Below, in pieces: positions 5,962 through 62,225 of a DNA stretch of 64,000 nucleotides. Made by a program: the position numbers and the translations under genes. The notes beneath the pieces are model-generated. The model was not told the origin of the DNA. It saw nothing but the letters and a program-made list of their open reading frames with translations, and did no database searches. Origin of the DNA: Candidatus Buchananbacteria bacterium CG10_big_fil_rev_8_21_14_0_10_33_19 (GTDB lineage: Bacteria; Patescibacteriota; Patescibacteriia; 2-01-FULL-39-33); the NCBI GenBank assembly GCA_002773855.1, contig PEZY01000012.1:233565-297564 (forward strand). Reading direction: 5' to 3'. Within the stretch, counting starts at the first letter, position 1, and every line of letters begins with the position of its first letter.

Positions 5962-7071
5962 ATGAAAATCGGTATCGATGCTTCCCGCGCCAATAAACAG
6001 AACAAAACCGGAGTAGAATGGTATTCCTACCATTTAATTCAAGAATTAAAGAAAATCACTCCAGCTGATATTCAGGTTTTGTTGTATACCAATGAAAAAT
6101 TACAGGGTGGTTTAGAAAACTGTCCATCAAATTTTAAAGAAAGAGTTTTAAATTGGCCGCCAAAATATTTATGGACGCAAATTAGATTAGCTCTAGAATT
6201 ATTTTTAAATCCGCCAGATGCTTTGTTTGTCCCGGCTCATACGATTCCATTTTGGCCAATAACTCGTAAAACCAAAGTTTATGTGACAGTACATGATGTG
6301 GGCTTTAAGCGTTATCCAAACTTGTATAAAAAAATTCAATATTACTATCATGATTTAACTATGAAGGTGATTAAGCGACGAGCGGATAAGATAATTACTA
6401 TTTCGGATTTTTCTAAACAAGAAATTATGGATTTATATGGCGTGAAAGCCGAGAAGATCGTAGTGATTTCACTAGGCTATGATCGAGAAAAATATAATCA
6501 AGACGTGGTAGTAAGTCATGATATTTTAACTAAGTATAAAATTACTCAGCCCTATGTGTTGTATGTTGGTCGCCTAGAAAAAAAGAAAAATATCGGCAAT
6601 CTAGTCAAAGCTTTCGCTTATGCCAAAGCGTCTAATCATGACTTAAAATTAGTCTTAGCTGGCAATGCTGGCAATGAATACGAAGTGATAAAAAATATTA
6701 TCGCCGAGCATAAATTAGAAAACGAAATTATATTACCTGGTTATATTGCTGAAGTTGATTTGCCGGCAGTTATCAAAATGGCTGAAGTTTTTATGTTCCC
6801 AACTTTATATGAAGGTTTTGGTCTGCCAATTTTACAAGCGATGGCCGTGGGGACGCCAGTTATTACTTCTGATATCGAGCCACACCGGTCTATCTCAGGT
6901 GGCTGTGCTGTTTTGGTCAATCCAAAGAATTCAAAATATATGGCTCAACAAATTAATAAAATTATTAAAGATTGGGAATTTGCCAGTGATTTGAAATCCG
7001 CTGGCTTAGATCGAGTGCAATCATTTTCTTGGTCTAAAACCGCTCAGGACACTTTGGCAGTGATAAAATAA
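5962..7071 (+). CDS. Glycosyltransferase family 4 (GT-B, RfaG-like)
   Basis: KIGIDASRA... N-terminus and a C-terminal EGFGLP.LQAMA.G.PVI motif typical of GT4. Confidence 0.75.
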   Translation: MKIGIDASRANKQNKTGVEWYSYHLIQELKKITPADIQVLLYTNEKLQGGLENCPSNFKERVLNWPPKYLWTQIRLALELFLNPPDALFVPAHTIPFWPITRKTKVYVTVHDVGFKRYPNLYKKIQYYYHDLTMKVIKRRADKIITISDFSKQEIMDLYGVKAEKIVVISLGYDREKYNQDVVVSHDILTKYKITQPYVLYVGRLEKKKNIGNLVKAFAYAKASNHDLKLVLAGNAGNEYEVIKNIIAEHKLENEIILPGYIAEVDLPAVIKMAEVFMFPTLYEGFGLPILQAMAVGTPVITSDIEPHRSISGGCAVLVNPKNSKYMAQQINKIIKDWEFASDLKSAGLDRVQSFSWSKTAQDTLAVIK

Positions 7072-8209: not shown

Positions 8210-9276
8210 AAACAAATCGCATATTAATTTTTTCTTGTTTAATCGTCATAGCTTTGCTAGTGAGTGGCTGTACGATTAGTATTGGGGGTAATTCTAAAAA
8301 AGTGGTTGATGGTGGGGTTTATAAGTCCATTGACGGCAGTGCTACTTGGAATCAGGTAGCGGTAGTACCAACAGCTAATGGAAAAGTGGCCAGTATTTCC
8401 AATGTCGATATTCGTCGAATGATTTTTGATCCATCAGATTATAACACCATTTATTTATCTACCGAAACAGATGGCGTAGTTTACACTAATAATGGTGGTG
8501 ATAACTGGAACCAATTTAAGCAATTTGTTGGTCAAAAAATCAGATCAATTGGTGTCGATGCCAAGGATAAATGCAATTTGTATGTTTTGTCCGCTAATAA
8601 ACTTTATAAATCTACAGATTGTGGCCGATTTTGGACTGATGTTTATGTTCATCAAAATGCTGATGTAATTTTAACCGATGTTTTGGTGGATTATTTCAAT
8701 AGCTCAATTATTTATATGACCACTAGTGTCGGTGAAGTGTTAAAGAGTACTGATAGTGGCATGGCTTGGGCCACAGTTAACCGCGTAGACCGAGGCGTAT
8801 TTTTGGACTTAGCTATTGATCCCAAGAATAGTCGCATAGTCTATGCCGCGACCGAAAAGCATGGAGTTTATAAGACTATAGATGGCGGCGCAACTTGGGA
8901 GAGCTTGGGCATTGGTTTAAAAGCTTATGCTGGTAGTCAAGAGTATAGGAGCTTAATTATTGATCAGTCGGCTAAAAATAGTTTGATTTTAATCTCAAAA
9001 TTTGGCATGCTAAGGACTCAGGATGGTGGCACTACTTGGGAGGTCATAGAACTATTGCCAGCTTCTAAGAAAACAACTATTTATTCAGCGGCTATAAATC
9101 CTCGTGATAGCCAAGAAATTTATTATGCCACTAGAACAACATTAGTTAAATCTACTGATGGTGGAAAAACTTGGTCGTCACAGGATTTACCTACCACTAG
9201 ATCGGCTAATAAAATTATTATCAATCCAACTAATCCAGATATAGTTTATTTGGGAGCCATGAATGCTAGTAATTAG
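8206..9276 (+). CDS. Lipoprotein with BNR/Ycf48-like beta-propeller repeats
   Basis: Signal peptide plus lipobox (LVSGC). Repeated S/T-x-D-G-G-x-TW motifs. ATGA overlap with the holB stop. Confidence 0.6.
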   Translation: MKTNRILIFSCLIVIALLVSGCTISIGGNSKKVVDGGVYKSIDGSATWNQVAVVPTANGKVASISNVDIRRMIFDPSDYNTIYLSTETDGVVYTNNGGDNWNQFKQFVGQKIRSIGVDAKDKCNLYVLSANKLYKSTDCGRFWTDVYVHQNADVILTDVLVDYFNSSIIYMTTSVGEVLKSTDSGMAWATVNRVDRGVFLDLAIDPKNSRIVYAATEKHGVYKTIDGGATWESLGIGLKAYAGSQEYRSLIIDQSAKNSLILISKFGMLRTQDGGTTWEVIELLPASKKTTIYSAAINPRDSQEIYYATRTTLVKSTDGGKTWSSQDLPTTRSANKIIINPTNPDIVYLGAMNASN

Positions 9277-9301
9277 TAATATTAAATAAAATAAGAAATA
9301 T

Positions 9302-9853
9302 ATGAGTATAATTGATAATCATAAAATTGATTTTGGTAAAGTAATTGATCACTTTGTTAGTGATATCGCTACTTTAAAAACTGGCCGAGCTAATCCGGCA
9401 GTTTTGGATTTACTGAAAGTAGAAGTCTATGGTATTTATACGCCAATTAATCAAGTGGCTTCTATTTCGGTGCCAGAGGCTCGATCAATTATTATTCAAC
9501 CTTGGGATAAAAATGTTATTAATGATATCGACAAGGCTATTAGAGAATCTGATTTGGGACTTAGTTCGGTAAATGAGGGTGATAAGATTAGAATTGTAAT
9601 TCCTCAAATGACTGAAGAATCCAGAAAAGAAATTGTTAAAACTTTAAATAAAAAAATAGAAGAGGCCAGAATTGCTGTGCGTGGTGTACGCGATGAAATT
9701 AAAGATGAAGTTATCGAAGCCGAAAAAAATAAAGAATTCGGTGAGGATGAAAAATATAGTTTAATTGAACAGTTAGACAAAGTGACTAGTGAGTTCAATG
9801 ATAAAATCAAAGAGCTAGGCGAGAAAAAAGAAAAAGAAATAATGACCGTTTAA
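9302..9853 (+). CDS. frr: Ribosome recycling factor
   Basis: 183 aa. Typical RRF N-terminus (IDN..IDF.K..D.F..D...L.TGRA.P..L) and length. Confidence 0.9.
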   Translation: MSIIDNHKIDFGKVIDHFVSDIATLKTGRANPAVLDLLKVEVYGIYTPINQVASISVPEARSIIIQPWDKNVINDIDKAIRESDLGLSSVNEGDKIRIVIPQMTEESRKEIVKTLNKKIEEARIAVRGVRDEIKDEVIEAEKNKEFGEDEKYSLIEQLDKVTSEFNDKIKELGEKKEKEIMTV

Positions 9854-9858
9854 TATAT

Positions 9859-11031
9859 ATGATCACTACCATAATAATATTTTTATTAGTTTTATCAGTA
9901 ATCGTTTTTGTCCATGAGATGGGCCATTTTGTCAGCGCTCGAAAAATGGGCGTGCGAGTCGAGGAATTTGGCTTGGGTATTCCACCACGCATGTTTGGCG
10001 TAAAAAAAGTGGACGGTAAGTTTAAAATGGTTTGGGGCAAAGGAGAATTAGACAAAGATAGCCCGACCGTTTATTCGCTTAATTGGTTTCCAGTTGGTGG
10101 TTTTGTAAAAATAAAAGGGGAGTCTGGTGAAGACGCTCAGTCAGAAGATAGCTTTGCGTATAAACCAGTTTGGCAAAGATCAGTAATGATTTCAGCCGGT
10201 GTTATTATGAATGTAGTATTGTGTATGGTGCTATTATCTATTGGCTTTGGCTTTGGTATGCCAGCCGCTGTAGATAATAATATTAGTGATAAAGCTATCG
10301 TTTCTAATAAGAGTATTCAGGTGATTCAACTACTGCCAGATGGTCAGGCTAAATTGGCTGGCATTGAGGCTGGTGATGTTATTGCTAAGGTTGGTGGTCA
10401 AGAATTTACTACAACATTAGAATTGAATGGATTTTTAGCTGATAAATTAGATCAAGAAGTAGTATTTGAAATTAAAAGAGGTGGTGAGATAATACAAAAA
10501 AATATCACTATTGGTAAATATTCTTTTGAAGGTAAGGAGTCAGTGGGTATTGGCGTGGGTTTGGTGGAAACAGCTATAGTTAAATATCCTTGGTATTTAG
10601 CAATTTACAAAGGAGTAATTGCTACTTTTATTTGGATGTGGGCGATTATTGTGGCTTTTGCGACGGTAATTAAAAATTTAATAGTTGGGGTACCAACTGG
10701 AGTAGAAGTAGCTGGTCCGGTGGGGATTGCAGTTTTAACTGGTCAGGCGGCTAAAATGGGTATAATTTATTTATTACAATTTACCGCTCTGTTGTCTTTA
10801 AATTTAGCGATTATAAATATTTTGCCTTTTCCAGCTTTGGATGGTGGTAGATTATTCTTTTTAATTTTAGAAAAAATTAGAGGCAAGGCTGTAAAACAGG
10901 AGTGGGAGAACGTTATTCATAATGTTGGCTTCCTATTTTTGATGGGCTTGGTATTATTAGTAACATTTGGTGATGTTATAAAATATGGCGGTGGTGTTTT
11001 TGGCGCCATTAAACATTTATTTGGTTTTTAA
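9859..11031 (+). CDS. rseP: RIP zinc metalloprotease RseP (site-2 protease)
   Basis: HEMGHF HExxH in the first TM, central PDZ domain (AGIEAGDVI), C-terminal LDGG motif. Confidence 0.85.
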   Translation: MITTIIIFLLVLSVIVFVHEMGHFVSARKMGVRVEEFGLGIPPRMFGVKKVDGKFKMVWGKGELDKDSPTVYSLNWFPVGGFVKIKGESGEDAQSEDSFAYKPVWQRSVMISAGVIMNVVLCMVLLSIGFGFGMPAAVDNNISDKAIVSNKSIQVIQLLPDGQAKLAGIEAGDVIAKVGGQEFTTTLELNGFLADKLDQEVVFEIKRGGEIIQKNITIGKYSFEGKESVGIGVGLVETAIVKYPWYLAIYKGVIATFIWMWAIIVAFATVIKNLIVGVPTGVEVAGPVGIAVLTGQAAKMGIIYLLQFTALLSLNLAIINILPFPALDGGRLFFLILEKIRGKAVKQEWENVIHNVGFLFLMGLVLLVTFGDVIKYGGGVFGAIKHLFGF

Positions 11032-11102
11032 ATATAGAGTAAAAACTTTTAGAGTAATTGCCTAATTATAATTAAGAATTAGGTTTTATAGTTAATTAAT
11101 TT

Positions 11103-11450
11103 ATGAAAATTCCAGTAGCAGTTAATATAAATCCGGATTTAGTTATGCGACGAAGTGGCTATGGCTTTTTGCGCGATAGACAACATGGCACAGAAAGTTA
11201 TGTCCGTAGATTGGGTAGTGGTTTTTATCCACGGTTTCATGTTTATGTCCAAAATAATAGTATAAATCTTCATTTGGATCAAAAGCAAGCTAGTTATGGT
11301 GGTACTTCGGCTCACAGTGGTGAATATGATGGTGAAGTCGTAGAAAGAGAGGGCGAGAGAATTAAGGTAGTGATGAGTGGTTTAGTTACCTCAGAAAATC
11401 CACCAAAAGCAGAAGAAAAAAAGGGTTTTTGGCAGAGTATTTTGGGTTAA
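11103..11450 (+). CDS. Hypothetical protein
   Basis: 115-aa ORF with no recognisable motif. Confidence 0.3.
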   Translation: MKIPVAVNINPDLVMRRSGYGFLRDRQHGTESYVRRLGSGFYPRFHVYVQNNSINLHLDQKQASYGGTSAHSGEYDGEVVEREGERIKVVMSGLVTSENPPKAEEKKGFWQSILG

Positions 11451-11520
11451 AAATAGCTTTTGACAAAAGACTTAAAAAATGAAAAAATACTGTTAATCAA
11501 TAACTCAATTATCAATAATA

Positions 11521-12746
11521 TGAGGCAATCTAAGCTTTTCACAAAAACTCGAAATACAGCGCCTAAAGACGCTGTTAGTGCATCCCATAAATATTTAATT
11601 CAAGGTGGCTTTGCCGATATGCTAATGGCCGGAGTTTATACTTATTTGCCGTTGGGTTATCGAGTGATTAAAAATATTTCTAATATCATTAGAGAAGAAA
11701 TGGATAAAACCGGTGCTCAAGAAATGTTGATGCCAGCATTGCAACCAAAAGGTATTTGGGATGAAACTGGTAGATGGGAAAGTTTAGAAGAAATTATGTA
11801 TCAGTTTAAAGATCGATCCGGTAAAGATGCTGGACTGGGAGCCACTCATGAGGAAGTAATTTATGATATTGTTAGACGCAATATTAATTCTTATAAAGAT
11901 TTGCCATTTGCCATTTATCAAATCCAAAATAAATTTCGAAATGAGCTGCGAGCTAAAGGCGGATTAATGCGGGGTCGAGAATTTATGATGAAAGATTTAT
12001 ATAGTTTTCATATTTCTCAGGAAGATTTAGATGAGTATTATAATGAAATGATCAATGTGTATAAACGAGTATATGAGCGTTGTGGCTTAGAGGCGAAGGT
12101 GGTAGAGGCTTCTGGTGGTGTGTTTACTAAAAAATATTCTCATGAATTTCAAATCATCGCTGAAGCTGGTGAAGATGATATTATTTATTGTACTAAATGT
12201 GATTTTGCTCAGAATACCGAAATAGCCAAATCAAAAGCTGGTGATGCTTGTCCTAAATGTGGCGAAAATCTAAAACAGGGTAAAAGCATTGAGGCCGGCA
12301 ATATATTCCAGTTTGGTGATCAATATGCCAAGGATATGAACGGTTATGCCAGCAATAAAGACGGCGAGAAAAAACCAATTTTTATGGCAAGTTATGGTAT
12401 TGGTATTAGTCGGCTAGTAGCGACAATTGTCGAAATATACAATGATGATAAAGGAATTATTTGGCCAGAAAGTGTAGCTCCATTTAAAGCTCATTTGATT
12501 TCTTTGAATAAAAACGAAGAAGCTGAGGTTATTTATGATAAATTAGTTAAAGCAGGTGTTGATGTTTTATATGACGATCGTGATTCTTCAGCTGGTGAGA
12601 AATTTTCTGATGCTGATTTACTAGGTATTCCATATCGTTTGGTAATCAGTAAAAAAACTGGAGATCAAATTGAGGTTAAAAAAAGAAATGAAGAAAATTC
12701 AGAGATATTAAGTATTGATGAAGTAATGGGTTTAATTCAAAAATAA
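11521..12746 (+). CDS. proS: Prolyl-tRNA synthetase, short form lacking the INS editing domain
   Basis: MRQSKLFTKT.. class II motifs 2 and 3 and a C-terminal anticodon-binding domain. A Cys4 ribbon (CTKCDF...CPKCG) sits between motifs 2 and 3 where INS normally lies. Start chosen at MRQSK rather than the track's upstream TTG. Confidence 0.85.
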
Positions 12747-53870: not shown

Positions 53871-53964
53871 TAAGGGGAAAAGTTAAATAAATCACTTTTT
53901 GGCTCTGTTTAGCCAAAATATATCTTTATCACCATGCAGATGTGAGATTTTAATATTTTTATTT

Positions 53965-55152
53965 ATGTCTATATTAGATCAAGTTAGAAAAACTCAATTT
54001 CAAGATAATATGGCTGGTTTCAATCCTATGGAAACTATCAATATTTTACTTTCACGTTTGACCGACAAGGAAAAAGATGTTGTTAAACGTAGATTCGGTT
54101 TAGAGGCTGATTCTAAACAAACCCTAGAGGAAATTGGTAAACACTATGGTATTACTAGGGAAAGGGTTAGACAAATAGAAAATTTGAGTATCAAAAAATT
54201 AAAAGAACTTCAAGAATTAAAAGATGAAATACTAACTGCCGAAAGAGTAACTGCTCAGTTATTAGAACAATACGGTGGGGTGATGGAAGAAGAGTTTTTC
54301 TTGGAAAATATTTTAAACTATTTAGATACTAGAGATGGCAGTGAAAATGCCTTGTTATTTTTGGCTGATCACATTTTTTCTGATAATATTAATAAGGTTA
54401 AACAAGATAAAGAGTTTAATCATTTATGGCGAATGGATTCTGTGGATACAAATACTTTGAAAGAAGTAATTGGTGAAATGGTGGCATTAATTGAAAATCA
54501 TAATAAACCAATTAAGTTAAAGGATTTATTGGATAATTTTAAAAATTCAGAATACTACTCTAAAAATCGTGAAAAATTCTTGTCAGCTACTACTTTTTTA
54601 GAAGCTACAGAAGAAGATATTGATAAGGTTTTAGAGAGTTATTTAAGAGTTAGTCGTCGTGTAAAATCCAATTTATTTGATGAATGGGGTTTAATTTCTT
54701 GGGGTACAGTACAACCAAAGAAAATAAATGATAAAATCTATATAGTTTTAAAGAAATCTGGTCAACCGTTACATTTTGTGGATATTGCCAAAGCTATTAA
54801 TGAAACTAGATTTGATGAAAAGATTGCCTATCCACCAACAGTTCATAATGAATTAATTTTGGACAATAAATATGTGTTAGTTGGCCGTGGTATTTATGCC
54901 TTAAAAGAGTGGGGCTATGAGCCTGGTAACGTAGCTAATGTGGTAGAACAGTACTTAAAAGACAATGGTCCAAAAACTAAGGATGAAATTATTAACTATG
55001 TTTTGAGTAAGAGAAATGTTAAAAAGTCCACTGTATATTTGTCTTTAATGAATAATGATAATATTCAAAAAAACGATAGCGGTAAATATGTATATATTGA
55101 AAATTCAAATTCTGACGATAGTTCAGCAGTTTTAAACTCAGATAATCAATAA
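53965..55152 (+). CDS. Sigma-70 region 4-like HTH fused to a C-terminal HARE-HTH-like domain
   Basis: LTDKEKDVVKRRFGL....TLEEIGKHYGITRERVRQIENLSIKKLK is a region 4.2-like HTH. No regions 2/3. C-terminal ...LHFVDIAKAINE....TVHNELILDNKYVLVGRGIYALKEWGY resembles HARE-HTH. Start uncertain (53965 or 54011). Confidence 0.55.
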   Translation: MSILDQVRKTQFQDNMAGFNPMETINILLSRLTDKEKDVVKRRFGLEADSKQTLEEIGKHYGITRERVRQIENLSIKKLKELQELKDEILTAERVTAQLLEQYGGVMEEEFFLENILNYLDTRDGSENALLFLADHIFSDNINKVKQDKEFNHLWRMDSVDTNTLKEVIGEMVALIENHNKPIKLKDLLDNFKNSEYYSKNREKFLSATTFLEATEEDIDKVLESYLRVSRRVKSNLFDEWGLISWGTVQPKKINDKIYIVLKKSGQPLHFVDIAKAINETRFDEKIAYPPTVHNELILDNKYVLVGRGIYALKEWGYEPGNVANVVEQYLKDNGPKTKDEIINYVLSKRNVKKSTVYLSLMNNDNIQKNDSGKYVYIENSNSDDSSAVLNSDNQ

Positions 55153-55264
55153 TTTGGTTTCTAATTATCTGTTAATTATATGTAAAAACATAATTAACAG
55201 AAACTAGTAACTAAGTTTCTTCAATTTTAGAAGTAGACTAGTAAGCTCAAAAGGTGACAACTTT

Positions 55265-56725
55265 ATGGGTAAAAATGGTATTAACATAGAAATTGATTTT
55301 TTATCAATTTGGAATACAATCATAGACTTTGGTTCTCAAAATCCAGTTATCATAGCAACTCAGATTTTTCTAGGCGGTGGCTGGGTAGTTTTTTTGTTAC
55401 TTTTTATTTATGGTCTTTATACTGTTTGGTTGGATGGCCGGCAAGCTAGGTTTGCTTCTAAGTGGAAGCATATATTATTGGCTATAGATATACCTAAAAA
55501 TAATATTCAAACTCCTAAGGCAGTAGAGAGTATTTTTATCGCTTTAGCCGGCGCTCAGTCTGGCGGTAATTTGGTTGATTTATATTGGAGTGGAAAAGTA
55601 CAAGAAAGTTTTTCATTTGAAATTGTTAGCTTGGAAGGGTATGTGCAATTTTTGGTTAGAACTCCTGTTCATTTTAGGGATTTGATTGAGGCAGCAGTTT
55701 ATGCCCAGTATCCTGAAGCCGAAATTACGGAAGTTGATGATTATGCTAGTCAATATAGTGATGTTAAATTTCCTAATGATAAGTATAATCTTTGGGGTAC
55801 AGAACTAGTTTTAGCTCGCGATTATCCTTATCCAATCAGGACTTATTCTGATTTTGAACATAAGTTAACTGGTGAATTAATCGATCCAATGGCTGGAGTT
55901 TTGGAAACTCTAACTAGACTTGGTCCAGGAGAGCAAGTTTGGTTGCAATTTGTAATCACACCACAAAAACCGGGTTGGGGCGAGAAAGGTAAAAAGATTT
56001 TAAAAGAAATGAAGGGTGAACCATACACACCACCAGAAACTTTTTCTGATAAAATTATTAAACCAATTAGTTTTATTGGTGATTTAGCTATGGCAGTGAG
56101 CAATGAAATTTTTGGCGCTGATGAAGTAGCCAAGAAAAAGGAAGAGGATCAATGGAAGATGTTTAGGATTTCACCTGGTGAGAGATTGGTTTTTGAGAAT
56201 GTCCAAAGAAAGTTAGCTCAGCATGTCTTTAGATTAAAATTTAGGTTTGTTTATTTTGGTGAAAAGGAAGTTTTTAATAAGGGCAGAGGAGTGGCTTCTA
56301 TAATTTCTGGCTTGCAACAGTTTAATGTGGCTGATTCCAATGGCTTTAAGCCAGGTCCTAGAACTAAAACATCAGCTGATTATTTTAATGTTAATAAACG
56401 AGTAGCTGAGTTGCAAAAGCGAATTTTACGTAACTATATTAAGCGTAACAATTACAATGGTGATGATGTTAGTAATATGATGGTTTGTAGTGAGGAATTA
56501 GCTTCATTGTGGCATTTCCCAGTTATGAGTGTTAAAGCACCAACAGTGGAGAAAATAGGCTCTAAGCGATCTGTGCCGCCATCACGGTTACCTTATGATA
56601 CTGGTCGAGTTCAGCCAAATATACAGTTACCAACACTCGAATCAGTTAACACCGTAGAAAATAAGCCAGAGATCAAAGAATCTAGACCAAAACCAACACC
56701 ACCAGCTAATTTACCAACTGTTTAA
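55265..56725 (+). CDS. Membrane-anchored protein (2 N-terminal TM) with a large soluble domain, partner of the downstream ATPase
   Basis: 486 aa. N-terminal TM helices (VIIATQIFLGGGWVVFLLLFIYGLYTVWL). Pro/Thr-rich C-terminus. 4-nt gap to the next gene. Confidence 0.5.
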   Translation: MGKNGINIEIDFLSIWNTIIDFGSQNPVIIATQIFLGGGWVVFLLLFIYGLYTVWLDGRQARFASKWKHILLAIDIPKNNIQTPKAVESIFIALAGAQSGGNLVDLYWSGKVQESFSFEIVSLEGYVQFLVRTPVHFRDLIEAAVYAQYPEAEITEVDDYASQYSDVKFPNDKYNLWGTELVLARDYPYPIRTYSDFEHKLTGELIDPMAGVLETLTRLGPGEQVWLQFVITPQKPGWGEKGKKILKEMKGEPYTPPETFSDKIIKPISFIGDLAMAVSNEIFGADEVAKKKEEDQWKMFRISPGERLVFENVQRKLAQHVFRLKFRFVYFGEKEVFNKGRGVASIISGLQQFNVADSNGFKPGPRTKTSADYFNVNKRVAELQKRILRNYIKRNNYNGDDVSNMMVCSEELASLWHFPVMSVKAPTVEKIGSKRSVPPSRLPYDTGRVQPNIQLPTLESVNTVENKPEIKESRPKPTPPANLPTV

Positions 56726-56729
56726 AAAA

Positions 56730-58418
56730 ATGAATCAAGAAGAAACTTTGAATGAGATAACTTTGTTTGGCGAAACTAATTTTCGCAATCAAAAAAAGCG
56801 TTTTGGTATTAAACGTGATGACCGAAGACGCCATGTTTATATTATCGGTAAAACTGGTATGGGTAAGACTACTTTATTAGAAAATATGATAATTTCTGAT
56901 ATTGTCAATGGTGATGGTTGTTGCTATGTTGATCCCCATGGTGATACGGCTGAAAAGATATTAGATTTTATTCCTCCTAGCAGAATTAATGATGTTATTT
57001 ATTTTAACCCAGCAGATACCGAATTTCCCATTGCTTTTAATATATTAGAAGCCGTTGATGAAAAAAGTAAGCATTTAATTGCTTCTGGATTAGTTGGCGT
57101 GTTTAAGAAGCAATTTGCTGATAGTTGGGGACCAAGATTAGAATATATTTTGCGTAACGCTATTTTAGCTTTATTGGATTATCCGGGTAGTACTCTATTG
57201 GGTATTATGAGAATTTTAGTTGACAATAGTTATCGTGAGAAGGTGGTTGAAAAAATTACCGATCCAGTAGTTAAATCTTTTTGGGTCAATGAGTATACTA
57301 AATGGAATGATAGAACATTACAAGAGGTAATATCTCCAATTCAAAACAAGGTTGGTCAGTTTTTGTCTAATTTTTTAATTAGGAATATTGTTGGTCAGGT
57401 GAAGTCAACTTTTGATTTGCGCGAAGTTATTGATGGTCGAAAAATATTAATTATGAATTTATCCAAGGGTAGGATTGGCGAGGACACGATGCAACTTTTA
57501 GGTTCGATGATTGTGACTAAACTGTATTTAGCGGCCATGAGTCGCGTTGATATACCAGAGAAAGATCGAAAAGACTTTTATTTGTATGTTGATGAATTTC
57601 AAAATTTTGCTACTGACAGTTTTGCTGATATTTTATCAGAGGCTAGAAAATATCGACTTAATTTGACCATGGCTCACCAATTTATTGAGCAGTTACCAGA
57701 AACCGTTTCGGCTTCAGTGTTTGGTAATGTGGGTACTTTGTTATGTTTTCGAGTTGGCGCAGCCGATGCAGAAAAGCTAGTGAAGGAGTTTACGCCAATA
57801 TTTTTAGAAGAAGATTTAGTTAATTTGCCAGCTTTTAGTATTTATTTAAAGTTAATGATTGATGGTGTTTCATCTGATCCATTTTCGGCTAATACTTTAC
57901 CGCCATTATTTGATGAGTATAGATCAAATAGCACTGAAAGAGTGGTTAAAGTTTCTCGAGAAAGGTATGCTAATCATCGTAAATCCATAGAAGATAAAAT
58001 AAATCGTTGGAGTGGTATGGATTTAAGTGAAAAAATGATAGCCACTAGCGAAGGGCATGTTAATTTTAAGTCAGAAAGAGATAAGCAGATTAAGACACAA
58101 CACAGAACATCAGTAGACAATAAATTTACCAAGCCTAAGCCCAAGGAGGACAAAAAATTAGAAGAAAAATACATTGTAGATTGTTTTTCTTGTGGTAAAA
58201 CTGCCGAAATTAATTTTTTTCCTGATGGCAAGCGTCCAGTTTTTTGTAAAGATTGTTTGGTTAAGAGCCGACAAGATAGGCAAATTAAAAATAACGCAAC
58301 AGACAAAGCGGTGTCACCAAAAATTGCAACAAAAATTTTAGAACAACCACAAGAGGCTGTACAGACTATCAGTTTGGCTGACTTGGGTAAAAGATCGGAG
58401 ACGCCGAATAATAAATAG
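56730..58418 (+). CDS. TrwB/TraD/VirD4-family (type IV coupling protein-like) P-loop ATPase, soluble, with a C-terminal Cys4 zinc ribbon
   Basis: Walker A IIGKTGMGKTT followed by CYVDPHGD (TrwB-like), Walker B YLYVDEFQNF, RKYRLNLTMAHQ arginine/Gln motif. C-terminal CFSCGK...CKDCL. Confidence 0.6.
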   Translation: MNQEETLNEITLFGETNFRNQKKRFGIKRDDRRRHVYIIGKTGMGKTTLLENMIISDIVNGDGCCYVDPHGDTAEKILDFIPPSRINDVIYFNPADTEFPIAFNILEAVDEKSKHLIASGLVGVFKKQFADSWGPRLEYILRNAILALLDYPGSTLLGIMRILVDNSYREKVVEKITDPVVKSFWVNEYTKWNDRTLQEVISPIQNKVGQFLSNFLIRNIVGQVKSTFDLREVIDGRKILIMNLSKGRIGEDTMQLLGSMIVTKLYLAAMSRVDIPEKDRKDFYLYVDEFQNFATDSFADILSEARKYRLNLTMAHQFIEQLPETVSASVFGNVGTLLCFRVGAADAEKLVKEFTPIFLEEDLVNLPAFSIYLKLMIDGVSSDPFSANTLPPLFDEYRSNSTERVVKVSRERYANHRKSIEDKINRWSGMDLSEKMIATSEGHVNFKSERDKQIKTQHRTSVDNKFTKPKPKEDKKLEEKYIVDCFSCGKTAEINFFPDGKRPVFCKDCLVKSRQDRQIKNNATDKAVSPKIATKILEQPQEAVQTISLADLGKRSETPNNK

Positions 58419-58427
58419 CAGTAGCTT

Positions 58428-58976
58428 ATGTGGGAGTTAGTTATTAAATCATTTTACCTTGCTCTGCCGGCTTATTTGGCTAATATGTCGCCGGTTATAT
58501 TTGATAAATTAGGATTATTTAAGTCTTTGGCTCAGCCCATTGATGGTGGTAAAAAAATAGGCACAGAATTTATTTTTGGGAGGTCTAAAACTTGGCGAGG
58601 ATTGCTGTCTGGTGCAATATTTGGTGTAGTAGTGACTTGGATTCAAGCTGGATTATATAGCGTTACTTTTTTTAAAAGCTTGTCGCTAGTAGATTACCCG
58701 CGTCATTTTATTGCTTTTGGTTTGTTGGCAGGCCTGGGGGCTATACTTGGTGATTTAATAAAAAGTTTTTTTAAACGTCGCTTTAATATTAAAAGTGGTA
58801 GTAGTTGGCCAGTATTTGATCAGTTGGATTTTATTGCTGGTTTTTTTATTGCAACTTACTATTTGGTTGGTTTTGATGTGGGTGTTGTTGTAGTTGTTTT
58901 TTTGATTACTTTAATACTACATCCCTTAACTAATCTATTAGCTTACCAGCTGGGCTTTAAAAAAGTTTGGTGGTGA
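58428..58976 (+). CDS. CDP-archaeol synthase-like (CarS/DUF46) CTP-transferase membrane protein
   Basis: LPAYLANMSPVIF...PIDGGKK......GRSKTWRG closely matches the CarS family signature. 182 aa, 5 TM. Confidence 0.55.
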   Translation: MWELVIKSFYLALPAYLANMSPVIFDKLGLFKSLAQPIDGGKKIGTEFIFGRSKTWRGLLSGAIFGVVVTWIQAGLYSVTFFKSLSLVDYPRHFIAFGLLAGLGAILGDLIKSFFKRRFNIKSGSSWPVFDQLDFIAGFFIATYYLVGFDVGVVVVVFLITLILHPLTNLLAYQLGFKKVWW

Positions 58977-59070
58977 GTGCTTATAACGTATACCATAAAA
59001 CACTTAACAAAAAATAATTTAAAAATTTCAATTTTCAAATTTTCATTGCGAAGTAAATTAATAGCAATAT

Positions 59071-59955
59071 ATGTCCAAAGTCCTAGTTATTTTTAATCCC
59101 ACTGCTGGATTGAAAAGTAAAATAGATGTGGAAACAATTATTCGAGATAAATTACAAGACCTGAATTATCAGGTATCTTTATTTTATCTTAATAATCGAT
59201 TTGAGGATGTGATAGGTGAGTTTGATTTTACTGGTTTAGATTTAGTTTTGGCAGTGGGTGGTGATGGTACGGTGAAGGTGGCTACTAGAACAATTATTGA
59301 AAATAATTTACAAGTGCCGCTGGCTATTGTCCCTTATGGCTCGGCTAATGTAATAGCGACAGCGGCTGGCATTCCACTTAATATAAAAAATGCCCTTAAG
59401 TTATTAGATGATACTAATAAAATTTTAAAAATAGATGTTGGCTTGATCAATAAGAAACATTATTTTTTAGTAGGTCTTTCTATTGGTTATATATCTAAGA
59501 TAGTAACAGGTGCTAGTCATCATTTAAAAAATAAATTTGGATTTTTTGGTTATTTATTAGTTTTTGTTTTTAATAAGATAAAGATAAAAAAATTAAAATT
59601 TGAAATTAAAACTAAAAATAAGAGTTTTTGGGTTCGAGGTAATAGTTTGGTAATTTTTAATGCTCTTAATTACTATGGTTTGAAAGTTAAAAAGCAGATT
59701 AGTTTTTCTGATGGCATATTTAATTTATATGTCTTTACTAGTCAGACATTTATATCTTTGGTAGAGGGGTTGTTTTTGATGCTTTTTTTTAATAAACCTC
59801 CTAGATATGTCTTGTCTTTGGATAATAATTATTTTAAGATAATTTTAAAAAAACCCACTAGCTCTTGCCAAATTGATGGGGATTATGTAAAATTGCCTAG
59901 AATAATTGAGGTAGTTTTGTTGCCTCAATCGCTTGATATAATAATTGGTAAATAG
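59071..59955 (+). CDS. Diacylglycerol-kinase catalytic domain lipid kinase (YegS/BmrU-like)
   Basis: KVLVIFNPTAG ... LVLAVGGDGTV DAGK_cat motifs. Confidence 0.75.
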   Translation: MSKVLVIFNPTAGLKSKIDVETIIRDKLQDLNYQVSLFYLNNRFEDVIGEFDFTGLDLVLAVGGDGTVKVATRTIIENNLQVPLAIVPYGSANVIATAAGIPLNIKNALKLLDDTNKILKIDVGLINKKHYFLVGLSIGYISKIVTGASHHLKNKFGFFGYLLVFVFNKIKIKKLKFEIKTKNKSFWVRGNSLVIFNALNYYGLKVKKQISFSDGIFNLYVFTSQTFISLVEGLFLMLFFNKPPRYVLSLDNNYFKIILKKPTSSCQIDGDYVKLPRIIEVVLLPQSLDIIIGK

Positions 59956-61030
59956 TTTAATGCTTAAAAAGAAGAAAAAAAGGGTAGTAATTGGTATGTC
60001 TGGTGGCGTTGATTCAGCAGTGGCCGCTGCTTTGTTGTTAAAACAAGGTTACGATGTCACTGGCGTTTTTATGCAATTTTGGTTCCCCCAAGGGGTGACT
60101 TATGGTGAAAATCGCTGTTGCAGTTTGGAATCTTTTAATCAAGCTAAAGAAGTGGCTGATAACTTAGGTATTAAAATTCACAAATTAAATGTTGGCAAAG
60201 AGTTTAAGGCTAAGATTGTTGATGAATTTATCAGTGATTATGCGGCACTTAAGACTCCTAATCCCTGCGTCTCTTGTAATAAATTTATAAAATTTGATTT
60301 GTTTTTGAAAAAATCTTTAACTTTATTTGATGCTGATTATATTGCCACTGGCCATTATGCTCAGGTTAAAAAAGTTGGTAGAAAGTTTAAACTCTTAAGA
60401 GGCAAAGATGAAAATAAAGATCAGAGCTATTTTCTTTATAATTTAGATCAAAATGCTCTAAAGCATGTGCTTTTCCCTTTAGGTAAATATAACAAGCCAC
60501 AAATTAGAAAAATTGCTAAAAAAATGAATATGGCTATTCATGCTAAAAAAGATAGTCAAGAAATTTGTTTTGTTGGTAAAAGTCACTCTAGTTTTTTGAG
60601 TCGCTATTTAAATTTAAAGCCCGGTAAAATTGTTGATGAAAATGGTAAAGAAATAGGTAAACATAATGGTTTGCAATTATATACAGTTGGTCAAAGAAAG
60701 GGGATTGGCTTAGCTGGTGGACCGTGGTTTGTTACCGGTATTGATAAGACTAGAAATTTATTAATCGTGACCAATGATCCAGAAAAATCTAAAATATTTT
60801 CACCAGCGTTGCAATGTCATAAGTTAAATTGGGTGGCTGGTGAACCGAAGTTTCCTTTTAAATGCCAGGCTCAAATTCGTTACCGGTCTAAACCAGAAAA
60901 ATGTAAAGTGACTAAAGTTAAAGACGAGATATTTGTCGAGTTTATTAAACCACAAAGAGCGGTCGCAGCTGGCCAGTCCATTGTTTTTTATAAGAAGCAA
61001 GAGGTAATTGGCGGTGGTGTCATAAAATAA
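59945..61030 (+). CDS. mnmA: tRNA-specific 2-thiouridylase MnmA
   Basis: PP-loop VVIGMSGGVDSAV and catalytic Cys motifs. 361 aa. Confidence 0.9.
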   Translation: MVNSLMLKKKKKRVVIGMSGGVDSAVAAALLLKQGYDVTGVFMQFWFPQGVTYGENRCCSLESFNQAKEVADNLGIKIHKLNVGKEFKAKIVDEFISDYAALKTPNPCVSCNKFIKFDLFLKKSLTLFDADYIATGHYAQVKKVGRKFKLLRGKDENKDQSYFLYNLDQNALKHVLFPLGKYNKPQIRKIAKKMNMAIHAKKDSQEICFVGKSHSSFLSRYLNLKPGKIVDENGKEIGKHNGLQLYTVGQRKGIGLAGGPWFVTGIDKTRNLLIVTNDPEKSKIFSPALQCHKLNWVAGEPKFPFKCQAQIRYRSKPEKCKVTKVKDEIFVEFIKPQRAVAAGQSIVFYKKQEVIGGGVIK

Positions 61031-61102
61031 ATTAATTGACAAAATCATAACTATTTTGTATAGTATAAAAGTTTATTGTACTTTAACAAAAAGGAGATAA
61101 CA

Positions 61103-61498
61103 GTGAACACAGAAGACACTAGTCAATTAATAGAATGCCCAGTTTGTTTTTCCAAGACAACTATTTCAGCTGATAATTATGGTGATCAATTGGCATTAGC
61201 CAGTCTTAATTGTTTAGATTGTGGTTTTTCATCTTTGGTCAGTAATTTAGAAGATGAGGAGGTTAGCGATAAATTGATTAAATATTATTTAAGATTGTTA
61301 TTAGACAAAATTATTCAAGGTGAAAAAGCTCGACAAATTATTAATAACAATCCGCTTTTCCCTTATAGTCGATCTGATCAATTAGTAGCTTTGATGGAAA
61401 ATGAGGTTATGCCAGCTATAAATAATCCTCACAATAAATCCATTAAACCTTTGAGTGTCGAGGATGTGGCAACCGTTAAAAGAATTTTAAACCTGTAA
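61103..61498 (+). CDS. Hypothetical Cys4 zinc-ribbon protein
   Basis: CPVCF...CLDCG. GTG start 7 nt after AAGGAG (the track's upstream ATG lacks an RBS). Confidence 0.4.
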   Translation: MNTEDTSQLIECPVCFSKTTISADNYGDQLALASLNCLDCGFSSLVSNLEDEEVSDKLIKYYLRLLLDKIIQGEKARQIINNNPLFPYSRSDQLVALMENEVMPAINNPHNKSIKPLSVEDVATVKRILNL

Positions 61499-61520
61499 TT
61501 TTACAACGGAGGAAATAAAA

Positions 61521-62225
61521 TTGAAAGCTTTAATCTCGCTTATTTTATATTTGCTTTGTGTCGTGACTTTTGTGATTTGTGCTGCAATTTATATTCCTTT
61601 AATTATTTTTTGGGGGCCAGCTAAGGCAGTGTGGTTTCGCCGTTTTTATGGGTGGATTATAATTAAAATGACTTTTAGTCGTTTGATTATTAATAATCAG
61701 CCTTTGGCTAATTCTGGTCCATTTTTATTTGTTCCCAATCATGAATCGTTATTCGATATTTTTATGATCGCAGCGGCTATTCCACAGCACTTTTCGGCCA
61801 TTGCTAAAAAAGAACTTTTTTCGGTGCCGTTATTTGGTTTTATTATTAAAAAAATGGATATCGTTTCTATTGATCGTAAAAATCATGTCAATTCTATGTC
61901 TGGCCTAAATCAGGCGGTTGAAAAGTTGAAAAATGGCACTTCGGTGATTATCTTTCCAGAAGGCACTAGAAGTCGTGATGGTCAGATTGGCGTTTTTAAA
62001 AAAGGCGCCTTTAAACTGGCATTGGATGCTAAGGTTACTATTGTGCCGGTTGGCATAAGTGGCGCTTATGAGGCTCAGCCAGCCAATACTTGGTTAATCT
62101 ATCCTGGCTCTGTTATTGTTAATTTTGGTAGCCCCATTGGTTATCAGGATTATCATCATTTAAGCATTAGTGAGTTATCCGATTTAATTAAACAACAAAT
62201 TATTAAATTATCAAGCAATCCCTAG
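61521..62225 (+). CDS. plsC: 1-acyl-sn-glycerol-3-phosphate acyltransferase
   Basis: NHESLFD (HX4D) and FPEGTRS motifs. TTG start 8 nt after GGAGG. Confidence 0.85.
   Translation: MKALISLILYLLCVVTFVICAAIYIPLIIFWGPAKAVWFRRFYGWIIIKMTFSRLIINNQPLANSGPFLFVPNHESLFDIFMIAAAIPQHFSAIAKKELFSVPLFGFIIKKMDIVSIDRKNHVNSMSGLNQAVEKLKNGTSVIIFPEGTRSRDGQIGVFKKGAFKLALDAKVTIVPVGISGAYEAQPANTWLIYPGSVIVNFGSPIGYQDYHHLSISELSDLIKQQIIKLSSNP

Follow-up and report, generated by a model that had tools for sequence, protein, structure and literature searches.

By which route might a bacterium rebuild its membrane phospholipids if, as reported for its kind, it makes no fatty acids and has no complete pathway to phospholipids? 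The question is raised by a 64,000-nucleotide stretch of the forward strand of contig PEZY01000012.1 (positions 233,565 to 297,564; hereafter the window), assigned to Candidatus Buchananbacteria bacterium CG10_big_fil_rev_8_21_14_0_10_33_19, in which a gene of the CarS family is followed by a gene for a lipid kinase. Genomes of the candidate phyla radiation (CPR, or Patescibacteria) have been reported to lack fatty-acid and complete phospholipid synthesis (PMC7242380, PMC11665869), lipidomics suggests that Patescibacteria take lipids, including lysolipids, from their neighbours (PMC7242380), and a 2024 perspective stated that no mechanism of lipid uptake or processing had been identified in them (PMC11665869). 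We propose, at roughly even confidence, that the CarS protein and the adjoining kinase constitute a two-step lipid re-activation module in which CarS makes CDP-diacylglycerol in place of the canonical enzyme, CdsA. The cell, itself tiny and probably host-dependent, would then probably rebuild phospholipids from diacylglycerol that it cannot make.

The two genes and their motifs are the following (window positions; aa, amino acids):

58428..58976, + strand: CarS-family integral-membrane protein, predicted to be a cytidine triphosphate (CTP):lipid-phosphate cytidylyltransferase; 182 aa, 5 predicted transmembrane helices; assigned by PF01864, NF003114 and fold
58584-58601, + strand: CarS motif SKTWRG (aa 53-58)
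58749-58781, + strand: CarS motif GDLIKSFFKRR (aa 108-118)
58815-58832, + strand: CarS motif FDQLDF (aa 130-135)
59071..59955, + strand: DAGK_cat lipid kinase of a CPR-specific subfamily; 294 aa, soluble, no transmembrane segment; assigned by PF00781 and fold
59257-59271, + strand: GGDGT (aa 63-67 of the kinase), invariant in 32 aligned sequences

An intact CarS-family protein in a CPR chromosome

The window has a G+C content of about 33% and carries nearly all of its genes on the + strand. Because these include a bacterial housekeeping set (a sigma-70 region-4 protein, MreB, MreC, PBP2 and RodA, SecDF, RseP, DnaK, DnaJ and GrpE, and ribosomal proteins), we regard the window as part of a CPR chromosome and not as a mis-binned archaeal fragment. 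The supposition in a preliminary description of this DNA that the organism might lack de novo lipid synthesis agrees with what is reported for bacteria of this kind (PMC7242380). NCBI, JGI, ENA and Logan assemblies contain the identical CarS protein with the same neighbours, on contigs that reach 565 kb, and its NCBI record, labelled Candidatus Falkowbacteria bacterium, names it 'CDP-2,3-bis-(O-geranylgeranyl)-sn-glycerol synthase'.

The preliminary description had called the 182-aa protein CarS-like and had quoted from it a string, PIDGGKK...GRSKTWRG, that corresponds to aa 37-58. The Pfam search confirmed this: the match to PF01864 (CarS-like) extends from end to end (profile positions 1-175 of 175) with 128.6 bits at a cutoff of 22, and the protein also exceeds the cutoff of 148 of the NCBIfam equivalog NF003114 (CDP-2,3-bis-(O-geranylgeranyl)-sn-glycerol synthase) with 157.9 bits. 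The CdsA family PF01148 is matched only in part (aa 53-126, profile positions 169-236 of 264), and NF008635 (CdsA) yields 25.4 bits versus a cutoff of 385. The sole sequence match in the PDB is the Aeropyrum pernix enzyme ApCarS (5GUF), which is aligned over its full length with an E value of 2.3e-14.

The fold points the same way. An AlphaFold2 model of the CarS protein, built from 27 homologs (predicted local distance difference test, pLDDT, 91.4; predicted template-modelling score, pTM, 0.87), was searched with Foldseek, and 5GUF was the only match with an E value of 0.001 or lower (TM-scores 0.72/0.82, root-mean-square deviation 2.6, E value 1.8e-5), while the T. maritima TmCdsA structure 4Q2G reached a query TM-score of 0.51 at an E value of 2.8. 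Across 81 sequences drawn from CPR, DPANN archaea and ApCarS, 15 residues are invariant (P14, A15, N19, P22, G51, K54, G58, G108, D109, S113, K116, R117, D131, Q132 and D134). The conserved motifs of the cytoplasmic loops in this family (K-T-x-x-G, G-D-x-x-x-S-x-x-K-R and D-Q-x-D) are all present. When the CarS profile was compared with E. coli CdsA by hhalign (probability 94.5%), K54-T-W-x-G58 was paired with GKTWQG, G108-D109...K116-R117 with GDLTESMFKR, and D131-x-x-D134 with DRID. Judged by these alignments, the protein falls in the CarS branch of the CTP-transferase superfamily, is intact, and has the catalytic core of CdsA without the N-terminal and dimerisation domains of that enzyme.

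The adjoining gene encodes a lipid kinase

The next gene had been described as encoding a YegS-type lipid kinase, and both the domain and the fold of its product agree with this, although its score for the YegS/BmrU model TIGR00147 (84.5 bits) stays under the cutoff of 118.65 and all equivalog models score far below theirs. The N-terminal domain matches PF00781 (DAGK_cat) with 74.7 bits at a cutoff of 23.6. An AlphaFold2 model (pLDDT 86) superimposes over its full length, about 300 aligned columns, on proteins of E. faecalis (4WER) and B. anthracis (3T5P), on S. aureus DgkB (2QV7) and on YegS (2P1R), with TM-scores of 0.73-0.80. The model thus has the predicted two-domain lipid-kinase fold, including the C-terminal beta-sandwich, and also matches sphingosine kinase. 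An identity as NAD kinase was ruled out, with 21.3 bits for PF01513 at a cutoff of 25.5 and a TM-score of about 0.55 compared with about 0.78 for lipid kinases. Relatives in the DgkB/YegS/BmrU group also phosphorylate monoacylglycerol, sphingosine, ceramide or phosphatidylglycerol.

Because the scores of kinase homologs drop sharply from 283 bits (46% identity) to 102 bits (29%), because the close homologs with a named source are all Patescibacteria (Falkowbacteria, Buchananbacteria) or unclassified bacteria, and because the PF19279 (YegS_C) match of the generic relatives was not detected in the CPR kinases, we class this kinase as a discrete, CPR-specific subfamily.

CarS and the kinase are paired in two unrelated contexts

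A scan of one genome per species showed that CarS relatives are encoded by at least 554 species-level genomes, many of them CPR. The neighbourhood analysis comprised the best 80 of these at least 554 loci, with our own calling and clustering of open reading frames (ORFs) and with cluster identities checked against Pfam and NCBIfam; contexts were counted for 79 loci, 43 bacterial and 36 archaeal. Domain labels rest on record titles together with gene context, and some titles of metagenome-assembled genomes (MAGs) look like placeholders (L008-L010, L017, L019, L024-L028, L036, L038 and other 'binchicken'/co-assembly MAGs). Titles such as 'uncultured Gammaproteobacteria' and 'uncultured Methanosarcinales' clash with the CarS tree and with gene context, both of which point to Patescibacteria and Woesearchaeota, respectively.

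The kinase gene lies directly downstream of CarS on the same strand in 17 of the 43 bacterial-context loci and in none of the 36 archaeal-context loci. The two genes overlap or are separated by at most 10 nt in 13 of the 17 paired loci, across which CarS identity to the window protein falls from 68% to about 41%; in the window itself a 95-nt gap lies between them. By their identical lengths, twelve long contigs were judged to carry homologs of both genes, among them the L012 and L013 contigs, in which the two are not adjacent. The pair was found in two unrelated flanking contexts. One, that of the window, has the order sigma/HARE-HTH, DUF8128, VirD4-like, CarS, kinase, MnmA; the other is a compact cassette with the order family 4 glycosyltransferase (GT4), CarS, kinase, PgpA, CDP-alcohol phosphatidyltransferase, DUF488, which is complete in L025, L026, L048 (Komeilibacteria) and L067 and shorter, without PgpA or GT4, in L014, L024, L032, L044 and L056.

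Eight loci proceed from CarS and the kinase to a PgsA-like transferase, four of them by way of PgpA, and the CPR versions of this transferase match bacterial pgsA best (81-92 bits, below the equivalog cutoff). Cassettes that continue into PgpA and a PgsA-like enzyme are what a route from diacylglycerol through phosphatidate and CDP-diacylglycerol to phosphatidylglycerol predicts. A CDP-alcohol phosphatidyltransferase (PF01066) is also the commonest neighbour of CarS overall (49 of 79 loci, nearly always at most four genes away, in bacterial and archaeal contexts alike). Because these enzymes consume CDP-lipid, their place beside CarS fits a CDP-lipid synthase, and a CTP-dependent polyprenol kinase, considered as another identity for the CarS-like protein, is disfavoured. 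The salvage module of the preliminary description survives in its core, as the CarS-kinase pair is conserved and tightly spaced in many CPR genomes; PlsC, which it had included, is reduced to a matter of lineage synteny.

Proposed route

In the proposed route, the soluble kinase of DgkB/YegS fold would use ATP to phosphorylate a diradylglycerol of the membrane. Its substrate would most likely be diacylglycerol and possibly monoacylglycerol too, giving phosphatidate or lyso-phosphatidate, the latter of which would then be acylated by PlsC. In the second step, the five-helix CarS-type enzyme, with an Asp/Lys/Arg core like that of CdsA, would move CMP from CTP to the lipid phosphate and so form CDP-diacylglycerol. 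PgsA-like CDP-alcohol phosphatidyltransferases, which share the operon in other CPR lineages and are presumably encoded elsewhere in this genome, would attach the head groups and, together with PgpA, give phosphatidylglycerol. An enzyme of an archaeal family would thus take on the usual job of CdsA in this lineage, and the product name 'CDP-2,3-bis-(O-geranylgeranyl)-sn-glycerol synthase' that is assigned automatically may be wrong in bacterial genomes. That the substrate carries acyl chains of the bacterial type is supported by the intact polar lipids of a CPR-dominated size fraction, all of which were acylglycerols, 31% being lysolipids (PMC7242380).

Does gene order reflect function?

Several observations weigh against this proposal, and we present them here and in the following section together with the alternatives on which they bear. 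One alternative holds that the gene order is simply inherited, that a canonical CdsA is encoded elsewhere and that the CarS-like protein has a side role, either in making a minor lipid or in a CTP-dependent reaction like that of polyprenol/dolichol kinases. The window lies on a single replichore with a strong strand bias (GC skew is above zero in every 2-kb bin of positions 1-64000), and because its genes form a long co-directional array, adjacency comes cheaply and is by itself weak evidence for operons. The order kinase-MnmA-PlsC-AlaRS is plain backbone synteny. Moreover, the kinase often occurs without a nearby CarS: three of four kinase homologs sampled outside the known CarS contigs had no CarS within 6 kb, and in two of these three, on the P0190 and P0217 contigs, the kinase follows GT4 glycosyltransferases. 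What speaks against mere inheritance of gene order is that the pair holds, at an overlap or at 1-10 nt, in both flanking contexts and down to about 41% CarS identity, that CarS keeps company with CDP-alcohol phosphatidyltransferases in most of the loci, and that every CarS/CdsA catalytic residue is intact.

Enzymes for the later steps of the route and a canonical CdsA were searched for in 84 kb of this genome, made up of the window with 10 kb of flank at either end. Neither a CDP-alcohol phosphatidyltransferase nor PgpA was found there or in window-type relatives, whose loci span 20 kb, and a profile search for the PgsA of this genome gave no match on the same contig among 8,000 candidates scored. 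The 84 kb contain no cdsA, pgsA, pssA, pgpA, plsX/Y or fab gene, so that the lack of a canonical cdsA and of plsX/Y and fab genes envisaged in the preliminary description holds for this region, the inspected part of a genome that measures 565 kb or more. The slot in which E. coli K-12 carries cdsA (annotated as frr-dxr-ispU(uppS)-cdsA-rseP) is recognizable in the window:

9302..12746, + strand: frr, rseP, a 115-aa ORF and proS (frr TIGR00496, 184 bits; RseP TIGR00054, 232 bits; ProRS TIGR00409, 484 bits)

This ancient, conserved bacterial gene order normally has dxr, uppS and cdsA between frr and rseP; all three are absent here. Because uppS is missing from this slot as well, yet the peptidoglycan genes MreB, MreC, PBP2 and RodA are present in the window and the cell thus makes peptidoglycan, so that uppS must be encoded at another site, the empty slot does not prove a genome-wide loss of cdsA. 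In 1.34 Mb around CarS genes, probing with E. coli CdsA and with the PROSITE signature of that family detected no CdsA and gave weak matches to the CarS genes alone; since each fetched locus amounts to about 2-3% of a genome, this absence is weak evidence. On balance, we consider it distinctly improbable that the pairing is inherited order beside a CdsA encoded elsewhere.

Which lipid is activated?

A second alternative is that the window encodes a genuine CDP-archaeol-type synthase: the cell would acquire isoprenoid ether lipids from archaeal neighbours or hosts, the kinase would phosphorylate archaeol and CarS would activate the product, or else the enzyme would be promiscuous. The chief evidence against an acyl substrate comes from the characterised CarS enzymes, which strongly prefer the unsaturated isoprenoid substrate 2,3-di-O-geranylgeranylglyceryl phosphate (DGGGP) over phosphatidate, and the CarS of A. 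fulgidus failed to complement an E. coli cdsA mutant (review PMC9385802). Known CarS enzymes select for the hydrocarbon chain and not for the ether or ester bond or the stereochemistry of the backbone (PMC9385802). The score above the cutoff of the CDP-archaeol synthase equivalog also favours this alternative, as do the nearest non-CPR relatives of the window protein, which are Woesearchaeota/Nanoarchaeota (DPANN) proteins of 40-46% identity. In addition, methanogenic archaea are the hosts of some Patescibacteria that live as obligate parasites (PMC12281837, PMC10936435).

Bootstrapped neighbour-joining trees, limited by a short protein, a simple method and a sample biased to the best matches, recovered monophyly of bacterial CarS in 0 of 200 replicates and monophyly of archaeal CarS likewise in 0 of 200. 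CPR and DPANN sequences interleave, with at least five separate, purely bacterial clades in every replicate, and the clade of the window protein is weakly resolved (35 of 200). Only three alignment positions discriminate this CPR clade from the DPANN clade, so the sequences give no sign of re-tooling for acyl chains and no basis for inferring the substrate.

Set against these points, the partners of CarS in CPR (the kinase, PgpA and the pgsA-like transferase) are of bacterial type and occur in bacterial-context loci only. No gene for geranylgeranylglyceryl phosphate synthase (GGGPS) or for a UbiA-type digeranylgeranylglyceryl phosphate synthase (DGGGPS) was seen beside CarS in bacterial loci when representative neighbours were inspected by eye, and the 84 kb contain none of the archaeal ether-lipid genes for glycerol-1-phosphate dehydrogenase, GGGPS and DGGGPS. 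The acylglycerol lipids of the CPR-dominated fraction (PMC7242380) and the nearby PlsC, a lysophosphatidate acyltransferase, also argue against an isoprenoid substrate. We think a CDP-archaeol-type activity unlikely and infer that CarS may act here on an acyl phosphatidate.

The preliminary description had found an archaeal-type CDP-alcohol-activating enzyme notable in a bacterium. It is indeed of archaeal type; given its relatives in at least 554 species-level genomes and the name already assigned by NCBI, it is not a rarity. A more far-reaching version of our proposal is that CarS was exchanged repeatedly between DPANN and CPR, that it has displaced CdsA as the sole CDP-lipid synthase in many CPR lineages and that the operon with the kinase (and, in some lineages, PgpA and PgsA) is a pathway for scavenged lipid; this we put forward tentatively, as somewhat doubtful. 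PF01864 serves as an archaeal marker in the assessment of genome quality (PMC10134863), and with hundreds of CPR species carrying it, estimates of completeness and contamination could be biased, as could the domain calls of mixed CPR/DPANN bins.

Three further observations concern CarS loci. In Woesearchaeota-type loci (L052, L055, L059, L072 and L078), a 184-aa PlsC-like acyltransferase (PF01553, 67 bits) lies one to two genes upstream of CarS and also beside fused PgsA-like and PssA-like transferases, an acyltransferase among archaeal lipid genes. In L070, which is labelled Saccharibacteria, a PHP-type phosphatase fused to a CDP-alcohol phosphatidyltransferase resembling (archaetidyl)inositol-phosphate synthase is encoded directly upstream of CarS (8593-9990), which suggests a route from CDP-lipid to inositol lipid in that lineage. 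Finally, a 3.57-Mb contig of Acidobacteriota (L039) carries a CarS homolog at 10001-10525 with a CDP-alcohol phosphatidyltransferase two genes upstream, and the family is therefore not restricted to CPR among bacteria.

Is the diacylglycerol salvaged or recycled?

A third alternative accepts the enzymology and differs in the source of diacylglycerol, which would be recycled internally and not salvaged. Released when phosphatidylglycerol donates glycerol phosphate to polymers of the lipoteichoic-acid (LTA) type, or by glycolipid turnover, it would be returned to phosphatidate, as by DgkB in Bacillus. The kinase has the DgkB fold, and DgkB is described as recycling diacylglycerol for LTA production (Jerga et al. 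2007, as cited in PMC11188291). Furthermore, in many CPR loci the genes beside CarS or the kinase encode GT4 enzymes with a weak resemblance to LTA-anchor and diacylglycerol glucosyltransferases. An enzyme of this kind is encoded in the window, 52 kb from CarS:

5962..7071, + strand: GT4 glycosyltransferase, about 40% identical to the GT4 directly before CarS in CPR cassettes (tblastn E values down to 6.5e-80)

Its NCBIfam scores for the LTA-anchor model (73.8 bits) and the diacylglycerol glucosyltransferases (62.1 bits) are far under the respective cutoffs, and a function in diacylglycerol-glycolipid synthesis with a link to the CarS module is speculative. GT4 genes immediately upstream of CarS or the kinase were observed in several CPR lineages (the L025/L048 type, L089-L091, P0179, P0190 and P0217). 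No LTA synthase was identified here, and since CPR genomes reportedly lack both fatty-acid synthesis and a complete phospholipid pathway, the lipid would ultimately come from outside (PMC7242380, PMC11665869). Recycling and salvage are not mutually exclusive. Recycling as the purpose of the module appears rather unlikely to us, and scavenging from a host may be the source of the diacylglycerol.

Implications

If the more far-reaching version of the proposal is correct, the operon would be the first pathway defined in Patescibacteria for making phospholipids of their own out of scavenged diacylglycerol or lysolipid, and CarS would be a natural case of a core lipid enzyme that works across the archaeal/bacterial lipid divide, on its 'wrong' side. 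Use of acyl phosphatidate would make CarS a natural non-orthologous replacement of CdsA. It would show that an enzyme regarded as an 'archaeal marker' can do without isoprenoid ether lipids, a point of relevance to the debate on the lipid divide, and it would also point to gene flow between two radiations of ultra-small symbionts, CPR and DPANN. The CarS-kinase module, to which some lineages add PgpA and a PgsA-like transferase, offers a concrete and clonable candidate for the step that follows lipid uptake. The annotation of the gene by automatic rule and the idea of lipid scavenging by CPR were known; what is unexpected for this known enzyme family is the host and operon context, and a changed role is plausible. 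In open-access full text, we found no literature that describes CarS in CPR, a kinase paired with it or an affinity to DPANN.

Other genes of the block

The preliminary description had delimited a block of five genes, a CarS-like gene, a lipid kinase gene, mnmA, a zinc-ribbon ORF and plsC. All five ORFs are present on the + strand at the positions it gave, with family matches far beyond chance. The three downstream of the kinase are:

59960..61030 (alternative start 59945), + strand: mnmA, tRNA 2-thiouridine synthase (NF001138, 431.9 bits)
61076..61498, + strand: zinc-ribbon ORF, 140 aa, with CPVC (aa 21-24) and CLDC (aa 46-49)
61521..62225, + strand: PlsC-type 1-acyl-sn-glycerol-3-phosphate acyltransferase, 234 aa, with an N-terminal transmembrane anchor

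The gene mnmA, whose place after the kinase in window-type loci is backbone synteny, is an interposed housekeeping gene outside the lipid module. The zinc-ribbon ORF matches no Pfam or NCBIfam family above cutoff and has only one homolog in the best 80 loci, with an ORF of 131-132 aa at its position in close relatives; not being conserved, it was rejected as a member of the module. The best promoter-like site of the block lies immediately upstream of it (61036-61064), in a scan for promoters and terminators whose counts were not above the shuffled expectation.

PlsC is well supported as a protein (TIGR00530, 123.8 bits at a cutoff of 102.95; PF01553, 117.5 bits), with the HX4D motif as NHESLFD (aa 73-79), FPEGTR at aa 145-150 and T. 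maritima PlsC (5KYM) as the closest structure (E value 1.6e-28). As a partner in the CarS/kinase salvage block, the part assigned to it preliminarily, it did not hold up. PlsC occurs near CarS in one of the 80 loci (L018), and in a kinase-anchored independent sample the P0134 contig has the order of the window, CarS-kinase-MnmA-x-PlsC-AlaRS, while the P0179 contig keeps kinase-MnmA-PlsC-AlaRS without CarS. Because this backbone recurs only in part of the lineage, among closer relatives, PlsC is not a conserved CarS partner and was rejected as a member of the module.

Upstream of CarS, positions 53899-58418 of the window encode a conserved triad of a sigma-70-region-4/HARE-HTH protein, a DUF8128 protein and a VirD4/TraD-like coupling ATPase, the last with a C-terminal CxxC-x17-CxxC zinc finger. 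Fourteen bacterial loci have VirD4-like/DUF8128 genes in the neighbourhood of CarS; in about seven to eight of these, and in P0134, CarS directly follows the full triad. Just upstream of the window, positions 6951-8335 of L088, a locus on the 333-kb JGI contig, carry a bAvd accessory protein gene beside a reverse transcriptase gene, an arrangement that looks like a diversity-generating retroelement.

Comparison with known systems

The kinase shares DAGK_cat with GGDGT and the two-domain fold with the DgkB/YegS/BmrU enzymes (S. aureus DgkB, 2QV7; E. coli YegS, 2BON) and differs from them in being confined to CPR, in its identity of at most 29% to the nearest generic member and in its operon linkage to CarS. 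PlsC resembles T. maritima PlsC (5KYM) in its match to TIGR00530, its HX4D and FPEGTR motifs and its N-terminal anchor; its sequence is ordinary, whereas its setting is an organism reported to lack synthesis dependent on acyl carrier protein (PMC7242380), and its linkage to CarS is not conserved past close relatives.

With the archaeal CarS enzymes (ApCarS, 5GUF, of A. pernix and AfCarS of Archaeoglobus fulgidus), the window protein shares the Pfam and NCBIfam family, the length, the five-helix fold and the 15 invariant residues. It is about 27-36% identical to ApCarS, has a bacterial host and is paired with a bacterial-type DAGK_cat kinase, to which its relatives add PgpA and PgsA-like enzymes, with no ether-lipid genes seen nearby. 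ApCarS and AfCarS use DGGGP (PMC9385802), whereas an acyl phosphatidate is proposed for the window protein. The CarS loci of DPANN archaea (Woesearchaeota/Nanoarchaeota MAGs), whose hosts are likewise ultra-small and presumably lipid-scavenging, resemble the bacterial ones in that 25 of the 36 carry a CDP-alcohol phosphatidyltransferase. None of the 36, however, carries a DAGK-like kinase or PgpA, and they have conserved neighbours of their own (a 155-aa membrane protein, RpiB, and fused PgsA-like and PssA-like transferases).

CdsA (E. coli b0175; TmCdsA, 4Q2E/4Q2G) belongs to the same superfamily, and the K-T-W-x-G, G-D-L-x-x-S-x-x-K-R and D-x-x-D motifs align between the two. The window protein is smaller, with 182 aa and five helices compared with about 270-285 aa and nine helices, it lacks the N-terminal and dimerisation domains of CdsA, and its gene is not in the frr-uppS-cdsA-rseP slot. 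The reaction proposed for it would nevertheless be that of CdsA, with PgsA and PgpA functionally downstream.

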